DNA of 64,000 bases from Escherichia coli (GTDB lineage: Bacteria > Pseudomonadota > Gammaproteobacteria > Enterobacterales > Enterobacteriaceae). This document shows, piece by piece, positions 30,179-38,952 of the stretch (position 1 is its first letter; each line of letters opens with the position of its first letter). Below the pieces are notes generated by a model, which was not told the origin of the DNA, searched no databases, and saw only the letters and a program-made list of their open reading frames with translations. The stretch is from assembly GCF_045037415.1 (NCBI RefSeq), contig NZ_CP173438.1, one strand, 5' to 3'. A program made the translations under genes and the position numbers.

Positions 30179-30658
30179 ATGTCAAATATGATATACTTAT
30201 CAATTAAAGGGAAAATACAAGGTTTGATCTCTGAGGGTTGTGGTTCGTATGCATCTATTGGTAATAAATATCAAATAAATCATGTGGATGAAATTTTTGT
30301 TTTACAGTTCGACCATTCTTTAAGTCGAGAGTATAATGTAGTGCATCACCCCATAAAATTTTACAAGCCAATAGATAAATCCTCCCCTTTATTAAATGCC
30401 GCTCTTTCTGAAAATGAAGAGTTATCAGCTGTATTTAATTTTTATAGAATTAATTCTGGCGGTTGTATTGAAAGGTTTTACACAATTGAATTGCAAGGAG
30501 CACATTTATCGAATATTCTGACATGTTATCCACACTCAATTACACATGCGGGTAATCAGCCGGAAGAGGTCATTGTTCTTAATTATAAAAATATAACATG
30601 GAAGCACCATATCGCGAGTACGGAATCATATAGTTGTTGGGAAGAAAGGATTTTTTAA
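30179..30658 (+). CDS. hcp: Orphan Hcp-family protein (type VI secretion tube/cargo-carrier family), 159 aa
   Basis: Product MSNMIYLSIKGKIQG...HHPIKFYKPIDKSSPLLNAAL...FNFYRINSGG...VIVLNYKNITWKHH... follows the conserved Hcp pattern; AT-rich; no other T6SS core genes in the window. Confidence 0.75.
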   Translation: MSNMIYLSIKGKIQGLISEGCGSYASIGNKYQINHVDEIFVLQFDHSLSREYNVVHHPIKFYKPIDKSSPLLNAALSENEELSAVFNFYRINSGGCIERFYTIELQGAHLSNILTCYPHSITHAGNQPEEVIVLNYKNITWKHHIASTESYSCWEERIF

Positions 30659-30660
30659 AT

Positions 30661-31371
30661 ATGAAAAGCGATCTCACTATAAAAAATAGATATTGTACAA
30701 TTCCACAAGCGAAGTTCCGTAAATGGGATGAAATGGACGTTTTACTCTGGAAGTTAGGAAAAAATGATTCGCGTCGCCGTTCAGGAGTATATTATTTAAA
30801 TGCTTATAAAGATGCATATGTACAATATAATAGAGACAAAATAATTAAATATGCATACGCCGCTGGAATTCGTCCAGAGTTACTGGGCGGCGTGGCCTGG
30901 ATTGAGTCAGGAGGTATGCCTGAAAATTATAAGTTTCAGATATATGAAACAAAAAGAATGATCGGATTGTTAGATATGCCTGAAAATAAAACATCATTTG
31001 GCTCAATGGGTATACAAATACGAACCGCAGCGATTACTCTAGGTCTAGACCCTTCAGAATTAACTACCAGAAATCAGTTAGAGTTAGCGACATGCCTAAT
31101 GGAGGATGATTTTACCTTTCAAATTGCTGCTACTTATTTAAGAGATCTTGTTCTTTTTGATTATCCCTCTTCGGCAACACTGTATATGACGAATGAGCAG
31201 TATATTATGGCTGGTATTAGATATAATCGTGGTGTTGAACGAGATTTGGGTTTTTTTATTTGTTTAATTAATAATTTGCCTGCACGTGATACAGATGATT
31301 ATAAATTCATCTCTTATGGTATGAGGTTGTTAGAGATTAGAGAACATATCAAAAAATTGATTAATGAGTAA
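30661..31371 (+). CDS. Putative Hcp-associated effector with lytic-transglycosylase (SLT / lysozyme-like) motifs, 236 aa, no signal peptide
   Basis: ATG preceded by AAGGA, 2 nt after the hcp stop. Ordered motifs: E82-S83 (WIESGG), G117-I-Q-I120 with TAA (SMGIQIRTAA), A157-T-Y-L160 (QIAATYLRDL), Y188-N-R-G191 (GIRYNRG). AT-rich. Confidence 0.6.
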   Translation: MKSDLTIKNRYCTIPQAKFRKWDEMDVLLWKLGKNDSRRRSGVYYLNAYKDAYVQYNRDKIIKYAYAAGIRPELLGGVAWIESGGMPENYKFQIYETKRMIGLLDMPENKTSFGSMGIQIRTAAITLGLDPSELTTRNQLELATCLMEDDFTFQIAATYLRDLVLFDYPSSATLYMTNEQYIMAGIRYNRGVERDLGFFICLINNLPARDTDDYKFISYGMRLLEIREHIKKLINE

Positions 31372-31377
31372 TCAGAT

Positions 31378-31710
31378 ATGTTAAAAAAACAACTACTATC
31401 AATATTTGAAGCACTATTATATATAATGCTTACTTATTGGTTAATAGATTCTTTTTTTGCTTTCAATAAGTATGACTGGATGCTTGAGTCGGGAGACAAT
31501 ATTTGCAGTATACCTTCTGTTTCAGGCGAAGATCGTATATTACAAGCAATGATTGCAGCATTTTTTCTTCTGACACCACTTATTATTCTTATCTTAAGAA
31601 AACTCTTTATGCGGGAAATGTTCGAGTTTTGGCTATATGTATTCTCGCTCGTTATTTGTCTGGGTTGTGGTTGGTGGCTTTTTTGGGGACGGTTTATATT
31701 TTGCTATTAG
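31378..31710 (+). CDS. ygiZ: Small polytopic inner-membrane protein YgiZ, 110 aa; candidate cognate immunity protein
   Basis: Starts 6 nt after the effector stop on the same strand; three predicted TM helices; matches YgiZ in size and in position next to qseC. Confidence 0.7.
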   Translation: MLKKQLLSIFEALLYIMLTYWLIDSFFAFNKYDWMLESGDNICSIPSVSGEDRILQAMIAAFFLLTPLIILILRKLFMREMFEFWLYVFSLVICLGCGWWLFWGRFIFCY

Positions 31711-31755: not shown

Positions 31756-33105
31756 TTACCAGCTTACCTTCGCTTCAAATCCACCTTGTTTCGCATTCCC
31801 AAAATCAACATTCATGCCATGCAATTTGGCGATTCGCTGGACAATCGATAGCCCAAGTCCACTGCCGGTAGCGGTTTGTCCGGGTGGGCGATAGAAGCGT
31901 TCGCCAATTCGCGCCAGTGCCTCTGGTGTCACACCAGGGCCGTTATCCCTCACGATGAAATTATCGGCATTCAGCGTGACGTCTACCACGCTACCTTGTG
32001 GACTGTAACGCACGGCGTTATCCAGCAAATTTCGCACCAACAAACTTAGCAATAGCGGTTGTCCGGTGCGTTTGATGCCGTTGGCATTGAGTGTCAGTCG
32101 CACGTCAATGTTCGCCTGCTGCGCCGTGTGGTAAATATCCATCACCGACGATTGCAGGAGATCTTCAAGCGGGATCTCCGCGACGTCCTGAAGGTTATCC
32201 AGTGAGTCCAGCCGCGATAGCGTGAGCAGTTGATCAACCAGACGAGTAGCGCGATCGATCCCGGAATGTAATTGGAGCAGCGCTTTTTTCCGCGCCTGCG
32301 GATCATCGTCAGAGAGCTGAGCAACTTCGGTTTGCACTTTCAGCGCCGTTAACGGGCTACGAAGTTCGTGAGCTGCGTCGGAGGTAAAGCGTCGTTCACG
32401 AACCATCATCGCATGTGTGCGGGCGAACAGTTGATTTAGCGACTCAACCAGTGGGCGCACTTCGCTGGGTACGCCCGTCGCGTTTAGTGGTTTTTCCGAG
32501 TCTGGGTCACGCATACGTAGTGCCAGCGCCAGTTTGTTCAGCGGCGCGAGTTCACGACCCAGTAGCACCATCATGATGATTAACATAATCGGCAGTGCGA
32601 CCAGCCACGGGATCAATTGTCCGGCAACAATCGCCAGCGCCATGTCTTCACGGTATTCCCATTCCTGACCCACAACGATGCGATATTTGCCATCAGGTGA
32701 GGTCATCCAGACAAAACGCCAGGGATCGTCTTCACCGACCAGTTGCCCGTCAGCAAAACCTTCCCGCTGATAGCTATAGGGAATATCTTCTCCGTTATCG
32801 CCATCGTTAAGGACCATTCTGCCGTCGTGGGTAAAGATGGCAAAAGTCAGCGCATCGTCATCAACATGACCGTGTTTTAATTTATTTGGCGTCTGTGCCA
32901 TGCGATCCGCCGCGTTGATTTCGTTGAGATCGAGCGTACTTAACCGTTTGGCAAACAGCATCAGTTGGGTGTCGAACAACTCATCGACGTTATCCGTTGT
33001 TTGTTTCCAGGCGACAAAGCTGGAAAGCAGCCAGGTCACCGAGGCCAGAATTAAAAAGATTAGCGTCAGCCTGACTCGCAGACTAAGACGTTGGGTAAAT
33101 TTCAT
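31756..33105 (-). CDS. qseC: Sensor histidine kinase QseC, 449 aa
   Basis: Two TM segments, HAMP, H-box (..[12 protein letters not shown]..) and HATPase region; overlaps the qseB stop. Confidence 0.9.
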
Positions 33106-33761
33106 TTCTCACCTAATGTGTAGCCAATACCATGCACGGTACGAATAAAATCACTACCGAGTTTGCGTCGCAGATGATGCACATGCACTTCAACGGCATT
33201 ACTGGTGACCTCTTCGTCCCAGGTATACAGTTTCTCTTCAATCAGTTTGCGCGGCAGTACCCGACCAGCGTTACGCATCAGTAATTCCAGCAGGGCAAAT
33301 TCTTTTGGTTTCAGCGTTAAGGGTTCGCCAGCCAGCGTGGCGATACGTTTGCCGGGGTCGAGCATGACGTTGCCGTGGCGCAGCTCGTTGCTGGCCTGGC
33401 CGTTGGTTCGGCGCATCAGAGCTTCCAGCCTGGCGGCGACTTCTATCAACGCAAAAGGTTTACACAGATAATCGTCAGCTCCCAGACGCAGCCCTTCTAC
33501 ACGTTCCGCCAGCGCATCGCGCGCAGTCAGGATCAATACAGGCTCACGCTGACCTTTTTCTCGCCATTCGCGCAAAATATCGCGACCATCCATGCCTGGT
33601 AAGGTTAAATCCAGGATCACCGCATCATAAGGTGCGCTATATAGCGCCTCTTTTCCCTGACGACCTTGTGTAAACCAGTCGACGCTAAAACCCATTTTAC
33701 TAAGGCCCGTTTTGATGCCGTCGCCAATCAGCATGTCATCTTCTATCAGTAAAATTCGCAT
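33102..33761 (-). CDS. qseB: Response regulator QseB (OmpR family), 219 aa
   Basis: [15 protein letters not shown]... receiver domain plus winged-helix C-terminus; upstream of qseC with 4-bp overlap. Confidence 0.9.
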
Positions 33762-34357: not shown

Positions 34358-34840
34358 ATGACAAACCTGACACTGGATGTAAATATTATCGATTTCCCAT
34401 CAATCCCTGTGGCGATGTTGCCGCACCGCTGTAGCCCTGAGTTGCTCAACTACAGCGTGGCGAAATTTATCATGTGGCGTAAAGAGACGGGGCTTTCTCC
34501 TGTTAACCAAAGCCAGACTTTTGGCGTCGCCTGGGACGACCCTGCCACCACCGCACCAGATGCGTTTCGCTTTGATATCTGCGGCAGCGTTAGCGAACCG
34601 ATCCCCGATAATCGTTATGGCGTAAGTAATGGTGAACTTACCGGTGGACGTTATGCTGTGGCCCGCCATGTTGGCGAGCTGGACGATATTTCACACACGA
34701 TATGGGGCATCATTCGCCACTGGCTGCCTGCAAGCGGCGAGAAAATGCGTAAAGCACCGATTCTGTTTCACTACACCAATCTTGCCGAAGGGATGACAGA
34801 GCAGCGACTGGAAATGGATGTTTATGTACCGTTAGCGTGA
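34358..34840 (+). CDS. ygiV: GyrI-like domain protein YgiV, 160 aa
   Basis: 160-aa cytoplasmic protein downstream of ygiW; family and context consistent with YgiV. Confidence 0.8.
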   Translation: MTNLTLDVNIIDFPSIPVAMLPHRCSPELLNYSVAKFIMWRKETGLSPVNQSQTFGVAWDDPATTAPDAFRFDICGSVSEPIPDNRYGVSNGELTGGRYAVARHVGELDDISHTIWGIIRHWLPASGEKMRKAPILFHYTNLAEGMTEQRLEMDVYVPLA

Positions 34841-34948
34841 TGGGGAATCTTTACCGGAGTGTGAGCCAAATCACTCGCGATAAGTTTGAGCAAACAATGC
34901 CACAGGCGTATTGTTGTCGGGCTTATAATTTCTCCGGTAAGGAATACC

Positions 34949-36556
34949 ATGTATACGCGAAATTTATTATGGCTGGTCAGCCTGGTAAGTGCGGCTCCTC
35001 TCTACGCTGCTGACGTTCCCGCCAACACACCGCTCGCCCCGCAACAAGTCTTTCGTTACAACAATCATAGCGACCCAGGCACGCTCGACCCGCAAAAGGT
35101 AGAGGAGAATACCGCCGCGCAGATTGTGCTGGATCTGTTTGAAGGTCTGGTATGGATGGACGGTGAAGGCCAGGTGCAGCCCGCTCAGGCTGAACGCTGG
35201 GAGATACTTGACGGCGGCAAGCGCTATATTTTCCATCTGCGTAGCGGTTTGCAGTGGTCAGACGGTCAGCCTCTGACGGCAGAGGATTTTGTCCTCGGCT
35301 GGCAGCGCGCGGTTGACCCGAAAACGGCAAGCCCTTTTGCTGGCTATCTGGCACAGGCGCACATTAACAATGCCGCGGCTATTGTTGCGGGTAAAGCAGA
35401 TGTTACATCGCTGGGTGTCAAAGCGATGGATGATCGTACTCTTGAAGTTACGCTTGAGCAGCCGGTTCCTTGGTTCACGACGATGCTCGCCTGGCCGACG
35501 CTGTTCCCGGTTCCTCATCATGTCATCGCTAAACATGGCGATAGCTGGAGTAAGCCAGAGAACATGGTTTACAACGGTGCCTTTGTGCTTGATAAATGGG
35601 TAGTTAACGAAAAGATTACTGCACGCAAAAATCCAAAGTACCGCGATGCGCAACATACAGTATTGCAACAGGTTGAGTATCTGGCGCTGGATAATTCGGT
35701 CACCGGCTATAACCGCTATCGCGCGGGAGAGGTCGATCTCACCTGGGTTCCGGCGCAGCAAATTCCCGCCATTGAAAAATCACTGCCTGGCGAGCTACGA
35801 ATTATCCCGCGTCTGAACAGCGAATATTACAACTTTAACCTTGAGAAACCGCCATTTAACGATGTGCGGGTGCGTCGGGCGCTATATCTTACGGTTGATC
35901 GACAGCTTATTGCGCAAAAGGTACTGGGGTTGAGAACGCCCGCAACCACGCTGACGCCGCCAGAGGTAAAAGGCTTTAGCGCGACGACGTTCGATGAACT
36001 GCAAAAGCCAATGAGTGAGCGCGTCGCGATGGCAAAAGTCTTGCTGAAACAGGCGGGATACGACGCCTCTCATCCGCTACGCTTTGAGCTGTTCTACAAC
36101 AAGTACGATCTGCATGAAAAGACCGCGATAGCGTTGTCTTCCGAATGGAAAAAATGGCTGGGTGCACAGGTGACGCTGCGCACAATGGAGTGGAAAACCT
36201 ATCTTGATGCCCGACGAGCCGGTGATTTTATGCTGTCTCGGCAGTCGTGGGATGCGACGTACAATGATGCCTCCAGCTTCCTGAACACGCTCAAAAGCGA
36301 TAGTGAAGAAAACGTCGGCCACTGGAAAAACGCGCAGTATGACGCCTTACTAAACCAGGCGGCACAAACGGCTGATGCAACAAAGCGTAATGCGCTGTAT
36401 CAGCAGGCAGAAGTGATCATCAACCAGCAGGCACCGCTGATTCCCATCTACTATCAGCCGTTAATCAAACTGCTTAAACCCTACGTTGGCGGTTTTCCGC
36501 TGCATAATCCCCAGGATTATGTCTACAGCAAAGAGTTGTATATCAAGGCACATTGA
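34949..36556 (+). CDS. ygiS: Periplasmic solute-binding protein YgiS (OppA/DppA family), 535 aa
   Basis: ORF 34886..36556; start at MYTRNLLWLVSLVSAAPLYA (signal peptide); family 5 SBP composition. Confidence 0.85.
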   Translation: MYTRNLLWLVSLVSAAPLYAADVPANTPLAPQQVFRYNNHSDPGTLDPQKVEENTAAQIVLDLFEGLVWMDGEGQVQPAQAERWEILDGGKRYIFHLRSGLQWSDGQPLTAEDFVLGWQRAVDPKTASPFAGYLAQAHINNAAAIVAGKADVTSLGVKAMDDRTLEVTLEQPVPWFTTMLAWPTLFPVPHHVIAKHGDSWSKPENMVYNGAFVLDKWVVNEKITARKNPKYRDAQHTVLQQVEYLALDNSVTGYNRYRAGEVDLTWVPAQQIPAIEKSLPGELRIIPRLNSEYYNFNLEKPPFNDVRVRRALYLTVDRQLIAQKVLGLRTPATTLTPPEVKGFSATTFDELQKPMSERVAMAKVLLKQAGYDASHPLRFELFYNKYDLHEKTAIALSSEWKKWLGAQVTLRTMEWKTYLDARRAGDFMLSRQSWDATYNDASSFLNTLKSDSEENVGHWKNAQYDALLNQAAQTADATKRNALYQQAEVIINQQAPLIPIYYQPLIKLLKPYVGGFPLHNPQDYVYSKELYIKAH

Positions 36557-36693: not shown

Positions 36694-38952
36694 ATGAGCG
36701 ATATGGCAGAGCGCCTTGCGCTACATGAATTTACGGAAAACGCCTACTTAAACTACTCCATGTACGTGATCATGGACCGTGCGTTGCCGTTTATTGGTGA
36801 TGGTCTGAAACCTGTTCAGCGCCGCATTGTGTATGCGATGTCTGAGCTGGGCCTGAATGCCAGCGCCAAATTTAAAAAATCGGCCCGTACCGTCGGTGAC
36901 GTACTGGGTAAATACCATCCGCACGGCGATATTGCCTGTTATGTAGCGATGGTCCTGATGGCGCAGCCGTTCTCTTACCGTTATCCGCTGGTTGATGGTC
37001 AGGGGAACTGGGGGGCGCCGGACGATCCGAAATCGTTCGCGGCAATGCGTTACACCGAATCCCGGTTGTCGAAATATTCCGAGCTGCTATTGAGCGAGCT
37101 GGGGCAGGGGACGGCTGACTGGGTGCCAAACTTCGACGGCACTTTGCAGGAGCCGAAAATGCTGCCTGCCCGTCTGCCAAACATTTTGCTTAACGGCACC
37201 ACCGGTATTGCCGTCGGCATGGCGACCGATATTCCACCGCATAACCTGCGTGAAGTGGCTCAGGCGGTAATTGCCTTAATCGACCAGCCGAAAACCACGC
37301 TCGATCAGCTGCTGGATATCGTGCAGGGGCCGGATTATCCGACTGAAGCGGAAATTATCACTTCGCGCGCCGAGATTCGTAAAATCTACGAGAACGGACG
37401 TGGTTCAGTGCGTATGCGCGCGGTTTGGAAGAAGGAAGATGGCGCGGTGGTTATCAGCGCATTGCCGCATCAGGTTTCAGGTGCGCGCGTACTGGAGCAA
37501 ATTGCTGCGCAAATGCGCAACAAAAAGCTGCCGATGGTTGACGATCTGCGCGATGAATCTGACCACGAGAACCCGACCCGTCTGGTGATTGTGCCGCGTT
37601 CCAACCGCGTGGATATGGATCAGGTGATGAACCACCTCTTTGCTACCACCGATCTGGAAAAGAGCTATCGCATTAACCTCAATATGATCGGTCTGGATGG
37701 TCGTCCGGCGGTGAAAAACCTGCTGGAAATCCTCTCCGAATGGCTGGTGTTCCGCCGCGATACCGTGCGCCGCCGACTGAACTATCGTCTGGAGAAAGTT
37801 CTCAAGCGCCTGCATATCCTCGAAGGTTTGCTGGTGGCGTTTCTCAATATCGACGAAGTGATTGAGATCATTCGTAATGAAGATGAACCGAAACCGGCGC
37901 TGATGTCGCGGTTTGGCCTTACGGAAACCCAGGCGGAAGCGATCCTCGAACTGAAACTGCGTCATCTTGCCAAACTGGAAGAGATGAAGATTCGCGGTGA
38001 GCAGAGTGAGCTGGAAAAAGAGCGCGACCAGTTGCAGGGCATTTTGGCTTCCGAGCGTAAAATGAATAACCTGCTGAAGAAAGAACTGCAGGCAGACGCG
38101 CAAGGCTACGGTGACGAACGTCGTTCGCCGTTGCATGAACGCGAAGAAGCGAAAGCGATGAGCGAGCACGACATGCTGCCGTCTGAACCTGTCACCATTG
38201 TGCTGTCGCAGATGGGCTGGGTACGCAGCGCTAAAGGCCATGATATCGACGCGCCGGGCCTGAATTATAAAGCGGGTGATAGCTTCAAAGCGGCGGTGAA
38301 AGGTAAGAGCAACCAACCGGTAGTGTTTGTTGATTCCACCGGTCGTAGCTATGCCATCGACCCGATTACGCTGCCGTCGGCGCGTGGTCAGGGCGAGCCG
38401 CTCACCGGCAAATTAACGTTGCCGCCTGGAGCGACCGTTGACCATATGCTGATGGAAAGCGACGATCAGAAACTGCTGATGGCTTCCGATGCGGGTTACG
38501 GTTTCGTCTGCACCTTTAACGATCTGGTGGCGCGTAACCGTGCAGGTAAGGCTTTGATCACCTTACCGGAAAATGCCCATGTTATGCCGCCGGTGGTGAT
38601 TGAAGATGCTTCCGATATGCTGCTGGCAATCACTCAGGCAGGCCGTATGTTGATGTTCCCGGTAAGCGATCTGCCGCAGCTGTCGAAGGGCAAAGGCAAC
38701 AAGATTATCAACATTCCATCGGCAGAAGCCGCGCGTGGCGAGGATGGCCTGGCGCAACTGTACGTTCTGCCGCCGCAAAGCACGCTGACCATTCATGTTG
38801 GGAAACGCAAAATTAAACTGCGTCCGGAAGAGCTACAGAAAGTCACTGGCGAACGTGGACGCCGCGGTACGTTGATGCGCGGTTTGCAGCGTATCGATCG
38901 TGTTGAGATCGACTCTCCTCGCCGTGCCAGCAGCGGTGATAGCGAAGAGTAA
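36694..38952 (+). CDS. parC: DNA topoisomerase IV subunit A ParC, 752 aa
   Basis: Product [49 protein letters not shown]... with the active-site region AAMRYTE. Confidence 0.95.

Follow-up and report, generated by a model that had tools for sequence, protein, structure and literature searches.

An unoccupied allele of the mqsRA toxin-antitoxin site between ygiV and ygiS in Escherichia coli

The 64,000-nucleotide stretch of Escherichia coli DNA analyzed here (NCBI RefSeq assembly GCF_045037415.1, contig NZ_CP173438.1; hereafter the window) carries the unoccupied allele of the chromosomal site that holds the mqsR-mqsA toxin-antitoxin (TA) genes in K-12. In the window ygiV is followed directly by ygiS, and it is very probable that this spacer is ancestral and was never interrupted, the K-12/BL21-type lineage having gained the cassette horizontally. 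MqsR is a toxin of about 98 aa, a RelE-like mRNA interferase, and MqsA is its antitoxin, which combines a zinc finger with a helix-turn-helix domain (TIGR03830) and is encoded immediately downstream of the toxin gene. Few TA systems have received as much study, and links have been drawn from the pair to biofilm formation, persistence, control of GhoT/GhoS and bile tolerance, the last through cleavage of the ygiS mRNA. The presence or absence of the cassette, its exact boundaries, its population frequencies and the state of the site in outgroups are direct observations of the present work; the features on which the argument draws are collected in Table 1.

Table 1 Features of the ygiV-ygiS region, in window coordinates unless another record is named
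Feature	Position	Strand	Basis or remark
Orphan Hcp/TssD gene	30179-30658		Pfam T6SS_HCP, E 3.5e-20
245-aa ORF overlapping hcp	30634-31371		no Pfam match
ygiZ (DUF2645)	31378-31710
qseC	31756-33105	-	ORF listing
qseB	33102-33761	-	ORF listing
ygiW	ends 34305	+	ORF listing
ygiV, left flank, GyrI-like small-molecule-binding domain, 160 aa	34358..34840	+	Pfam PF06445, E 6e-35
Uninterrupted ygiV-ygiS spacer, 108 bp, unoccupied form of the K-12 mqsRA site	34841..34948	+	sequence
GGGAA(T), bases replaced by the cassette (exact insertion point)	34843..34848	+	alignment of window, BL21 and O26
5' arm (CTTTACCGGAG) of inverted repeat, predicted	34849..34859	+	repeat found in K-12-type locus
CRP-like palindrome TGTGA-N6-TCAC before ygiS, tentative	34860..34874	+	pattern match
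Perfect TATAAT, candidate ygiS -10 box, 20 bp upstream of start	34924..34929	+	read from sequence
3' arm (CTCCGGTAAGGAA) of inverted repeat, predicted, contains ygiS Shine-Dalgarno AAGGA	34933..34945	+	repeat and fold prediction
ygiS, right flank, periplasmic family-5 solute-binding protein (SBP_bac_5), 535 aa	34949..36556	+	Pfam PF00496, E 9e-83
parC	36694-38952	+	ORF listing
258-bp sequence replacing ygiS, single-copy, unannotated	L002:5668-5925 (E. coli O26 RM10386)		corresponds approximately to window ygiS 34971-36530

The TGA stop codon of ygiV occupies positions 34838-34840 and the ATG of ygiS lies at 34949, which bears out the initial sequence-only reading that ygiV ends at 34840 and that ygiS begins about 109 bp further on with no gene in between; the spacer measures 108 bp. 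RefSeq genomes identical to the window annotate the left-flanking reading frame as ygiV. YgiS of the window is 98.9% identical to that of BL21, and the flanking gene products as a group share 97.5-98.9% protein identity with their K-12-type counterparts. As judged from its sequence, the spacer holds no credible gene. Only two mechanically called ORFs cross it, one on the plus strand (34837-35013, 58 aa) and one on the minus strand (34822-34950, 42 aa); neither matched any NCBIfam family in a search in which K-12 MqsA, used as the positive control, reached 2.9e-43 on TIGR03830, and alignment shows 1-nt indels in sister species that disrupt each of the two frames. Six-frame tblastn searches of the window with the BL21/K-12 proteins remained at chance level, with a best E value of 2.3 for MqsR and 1.6 for MqsA. 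At the DNA level, blastn of the 928-bp cassette described below against the 64-kb window returned chance matches only, of at most 17 identities; the MqsA operator palindrome AACCTTTTAGGT does not occur in the window even with one mismatch allowed, nor is the mqsA terminator present there. Alignment and blastn agree that the ygiV and ygiS flanks are contiguous and that no remnant of the cassette lies between them.

The annotation of MG1655 gives the order ygiS(b3020)-mqsA(b3021)-mqsR(b3022)-ygiV(b3023), and the same gene order is found at the locus in BL21(DE3). The placement of mqsR and mqsA (ygiU and ygiT) between ygiV and ygiS in K-12, on which the sequence-only reading relied, is thus right, and MG1655 carries mqsRA where a direct ygiV-ygiS junction would have been at odds with it. 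The mqsRA locus of K-12 (b3022-b3021) has the same chromosomal position and flanking genes as the empty site of the window, but it possesses the MqsR and MqsA reading frames, the operator palindromes and the mqsA terminator that the window lacks. Its layout has been tabulated as ygiV-204 bp-mqsR-mqsA-132 bp-ygiS, with a terminator downstream of mqsA (PMC5120126).

A three-way alignment of the window, BL21 and an O26 strain, whose sequences are collinear on both flanks of the site, places the breakpoint precisely. BL21 carries a 928-bp insert (L001:2044-2971) in place of the GGGAA(T) of the window, so that the site lies 2 bp past the ygiV stop codon, where the cassette starts, and about 100 bp from ygiS; some 5 bp that stood there before (GGGAA) have been replaced, not duplicated. 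The insert comprises, in order, a promoter region of about 200 bp, mqsR, mqsA and a terminator made of a stem and a T-run, and mqsR and mqsA are the only genes annotated within it in BL21 and MG1655. The sequence TAAnTAACCTTTTAGGT occurs twice in the promoter region, in keeping with the two copies of the MqsA operator palindrome in K-12. The GC content of the cassette is 40.9%, as against 52-53% in ygiV and ygiS. We looked for a target-site duplication or flanking direct repeat at the cassette ends and found none; the termini show no inverted repeat (14 of 40 positions match), and the cassette is adjoined by no integrase or recombinase gene, att-like repeat or tRNA. A transposon- or integrase-type insertion, which should have left a target-site duplication, terminal repeats or a recombinase, is therefore unsupported. 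The absence of a target-site duplication and of terminal repeats leads us to infer illegitimate recombination as the putative mechanism.

The direction of the change can be read from other Escherichia lineages. A scan of contigs representing one genome per species, with YgiV of the window as the query, returned five outgroups, namely E. albertii, E. whittamii, Escherichia sp. E1V33, Escherichia sp. MOD1-EC7003 and the divergent 'E. coli' SCPM-O-B-8794; no locus from E. fergusonii, Shigella, Salmonella or other outgroups beyond Escherichia was among those returned. None of the five has MqsR or MqsA near ygiV. In three of them an intact ygiS follows directly, 107-108 bp after ygiV, and in the other two ygiS remnants do so; YgiS of the sister species is 92-94% identical to that of the window by tblastn. 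The empty-site motif TGA-n-GGGGA-n-TCTTTACCGGAGTG is kept in all five lineages, the motif TGAnGGGGAnTCTTTACCGG at the insertion point is conserved among the outgroups, and every one of the five shows the direct junction with motif TGAnGGGGAnTCTTTnCCGGAG. Among the bases of the outgroup motif are those of GGGAA, which the K-12 allele does not have.

These junctions weigh against secondary loss, in which an ancestor carried the module at this site and the window lineage later deleted it. Such deletions do happen at this locus, through IS1 in strain H9Ecoli and IS30 in strain MB20, and ygiS itself is gone from 1,358 genomes (see below). However, the spacer of the window matches that of five mqsRA-free lineages, GGGAA included, and deletion of a cassette could not recreate those bases, which makes the window allele ancestral and the K-12-type allele derived. 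Moreover, the window spacer retains no trace of the cassette, unlike the real loss that we examined, in H9Ecoli, where its last 64 bp persist, and the cassette itself is of foreign GC content and almost devoid of diversity. We consider secondary loss very unlikely. A variant of this scheme, in which the gain was early and the ancestral allele was then restored in phylogroup B2 by homologous recombination, would look the same at this locus as a site that was never occupied. The two alternatives entertained by the sequence-only reading, that this strain lacks the module at the site or that K-12 gained it, thus both turn out to be true and to describe one event, to which the outgroup junctions give a direction.

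The distribution of the two states was determined in 5,426 complete E. coli genomes, by a search for the insert that is sensitive to about 65-70% identity or more. The 928-bp insert is present in 2,299 of these genomes (42%), always on the chromosome and never on a plasmid, with a median of one place per carrier genome and at most one intact copy. It is at least 99% identical in 2,296 of the 2,299 carriers, and none of the 5,426 genomes has an insert homologue under 95% DNA identity. A 101-bp probe spanning the empty junction, counted as a match when at least 80% of its length aligned, detects the uninterrupted state in 3,112/5,426 genomes (57%) and matches only partially in 2,297. The insert-carrying set (2,299) and the partial-junction set (2,297) are almost exactly complementary, which implies that essentially no genome with an empty site has a DNA-level copy elsewhere. 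Roughly, the alleles divide into 32% empty with ygiS, 42% mqsRA with ygiS and 25% empty without ygiS. A 1,101-bp stretch of the window across the junction is 100% identical in strain 4/1-1 and in the ST131 strain 4433, and at least 99% identical in 428 genomes; judging by sequence at this locus, the window strain matches ST131-type genomes of phylogroup B2. O157:H7 genomes have the empty junction too. The filled genomes sampled all show 97.7-97.9% identity to the window, and so small a spread fits a single haplotype.

Based on the above data, we propose that ygiV originally ran directly into ygiS across a spacer that had never been occupied. A self-contained mqsR-mqsA cassette, equipped with its own promoter, two operator palindromes and a terminator, would then have entered the K-12/BL21-type lineage horizontally and inserted 2 bp beyond the end of ygiV with the loss of about 5 bp (GGGAA), while the lineage of the window strain would never have received it. 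Single gain and horizontal origin, like the route by illegitimate recombination, are what we infer from the pattern. The narrow identity band of the filled genomes, the near-zero diversity of the cassette and the plasmid-borne relatives of MqsR fit a single horizontal acquisition. MqsR-family toxins with 57-68% identity are found on plasmids of Rahnella, Rouxiella, Pectobacterium, Yersinia, Burkholderia and others, and the atypical GC content, the identity of at least 99% in nearly all carriers and these relatives in other genera all agree with a foreign origin. A search for a donor with DNA-level similarity found none, the closest plasmid MqsR being 68% identical, and a search of phage genomes gave no match to MqsR and hence no support for a prophage origin.

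Among E. coli plasmids, the 354-kb NZ_MG591698.1 bears an mqsR with 99% identity to its chromosomal counterpart. We saw no other true plasmid-borne copy so close; the second 'plasmid' match of at least 99% comes from a 4.9-Mb record that is presumably a chromosome labelled wrongly.

One could also imagine that mqsRA, or a functional homologue, resides elsewhere in the genome of this strain and that only its position differs. The DNA of the strain examined directly is the 64-kb window, and both the MqsR-family modules on plasmids of other genera and the near-identical gene on the 354-kb E. coli plasmid show that such genes can be housed elsewhere. Nevertheless, no protein or DNA match occurs within the window, the cassette is chromosomal throughout the 5,426 genomes with carriers and interrupted junctions nearly equal in number, diverged DNA homologues (below 95% identity) are absent from every genome searched, and a published search of the B2 strain NRG857c found no MqsRA homologue (PMC7232551). 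We therefore regard relocation as very unlikely. The chance that an assembly or sequencing error collapsed the region is negligible, given the identical 1,101-bp stretch in independent complete genomes (4/1-1 and ST131 4433), its close match in 428 genomes and an empty junction in 3,112.

The right flank of the site is itself variable. A third allele, found in O26, O111 and other strains (1,358/5,426 genomes), combines the empty junction with an almost complete replacement of ygiS by a 258-bp sequence. This sequence of B1-type genomes has no convincing Rfam match, and its predicted fold is not unusual (z = +1.4). Only fragments of ygiS are left in Escherichia sp. MOD1-EC7003 (L004:4553-4922) and Escherichia sp. 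E1V33 (L006:3713-4140), which indicates repeated, independent losses of ygiS within the genus. The IS1 deletion in E. coli H9Ecoli (L009) took ygiZ through mqsA, sparing the final 64 bp of the cassette, and the IS30 deletion in E. coli MB20 (L003) runs from within ygiV, whose 3' part is lost, into ygiS, which lacks its 5' part.

Upstream of the site, a low-GC (33-38%) islet occupies positions 30179-31710 between mdaB and qseC. It contains an hcp gene, an overlapping 245-aa ORF and ygiZ, and from these sequences it looks like an orphan type VI secretion Hcp-effector-immunity module in which ygiZ is a possible immunity gene. The hcp gene and the 245-aa ORF belong to the islet in 1,260/5,426 genomes, and K-12, BL21 and O26 keep ygiZ alone.

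With E. albertii, E. whittamii and SCPM-O-B-8794 the window shares 93-94% identity over the spacer, compared with 87-90% over the coding sequences of ygiV and ygiS; this greater conservation than in the flanking genes suggests a constrained regulatory region. It contains an inverted repeat of 12-13 nt whose 3' arm covers the Shine-Dalgarno sequence of ygiS. The RNA of positions 34836-34960 is predicted to fold with -45.9 kcal/mol (z = -4.86), a value reached by none of 200 shuffles. The nine sequences available for a covariation check of this hairpin are 96% identical and show no double changes, and an Rfam search of the spacer and its flanks at a permissive threshold gave no matches. The candidate -10 box TATAAT is invariant across the Escherichia compared, and a putative promoter upstream of ygiS is attributed to RegulonDB in PMC5120126. 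The CRP-like palindrome is the only match to its pattern in the 64-kb window and its core is conserved in the outgroups; with 0.45 matches expected by chance and at least one in 31 of 100 shuffles, its occurrence is not significant. In the model of the fold, the K-12 cassette would fall inside the predicted loop, directly 5' to the stem, which would leave the ygiS promoter and leader intact. It is conceivable, if doubtful, that the spacer is a conserved regulatory leader whose long hairpin, through its 12-bp stem, hides the ribosome-binding site of ygiS when transcription reads through from ygiV, supplemented by a CRP-like site and an internal promoter, and that the K-12 cassette thereby broke the coupling of ygiS to ygiV and left ygiS downstream of a TA module. 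In that case the reported link between MqsR, ygiS and deoxycholate would reflect rewiring in one lineage, and 58% of E. coli would not have it.

The presence or absence of mqsRA is an already known polymorphism and represents ordinary accessory-gene variation. That the occurrence of chromosomal type II TA modules depends on phylogroup in E. coli is credited to Fiedoruk 2015, Ramisetty & Santhosh 2016 and Fraikin 2020 in the accounts given by PMC7167474 and PMC5120126. These modules are part of the accessory genome, with none common to MG1655, W, EDL933 and UTI89 (PMC7167474), and TAs have been horizontally transferred into core intergenic regions (PMC5120126). A pan-genome study likewise lists mqsR, mqsA and ygiS among the variable genes (PMC11390585). 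Like other accessory chromosomal type II modules, mqsRA is a small cassette of atypical GC content in a core intergenic region whose presence depends on lineage. It departs from the minimal transferred TA unit, described without a terminator by Ramisetty & Santhosh as related in PMC5120126, in that the mqsRA cassette has its own terminator. The diagnosis is also the one applied to small genomic islets in their empty and occupied forms, as it relies on continuity of the flanks and on the identity of the empty site with that of outgroups; unlike typical islets, the mqsRA site has no att-like repeats, tRNA, integrase or target-site duplication, and about 5 bp were replaced. To this picture the present analysis adds the exact breakpoint, frequencies on a genome scale and the polarity provided by outgroups.

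About 58% of complete E. coli genomes, including ST131-type, O157:H7 and O26/O111 strains, are without mqsRA, and about 25% are without ygiS as well. Because the module is missing from so large a share of genomes, the phenotypes ascribed to mqsRA in K-12 cannot be species-wide traits. In particular, the bile link between MqsR and ygiS, which was proposed in PMC4963858 and questioned in PMC6918082, cannot apply to most E. coli, and caution is needed in generalizing from K-12. The current view of TA systems as accessory genes is left unchanged; what the locus records is most probably that the K-12-type lineage gained the module and not that pathogens lost it.
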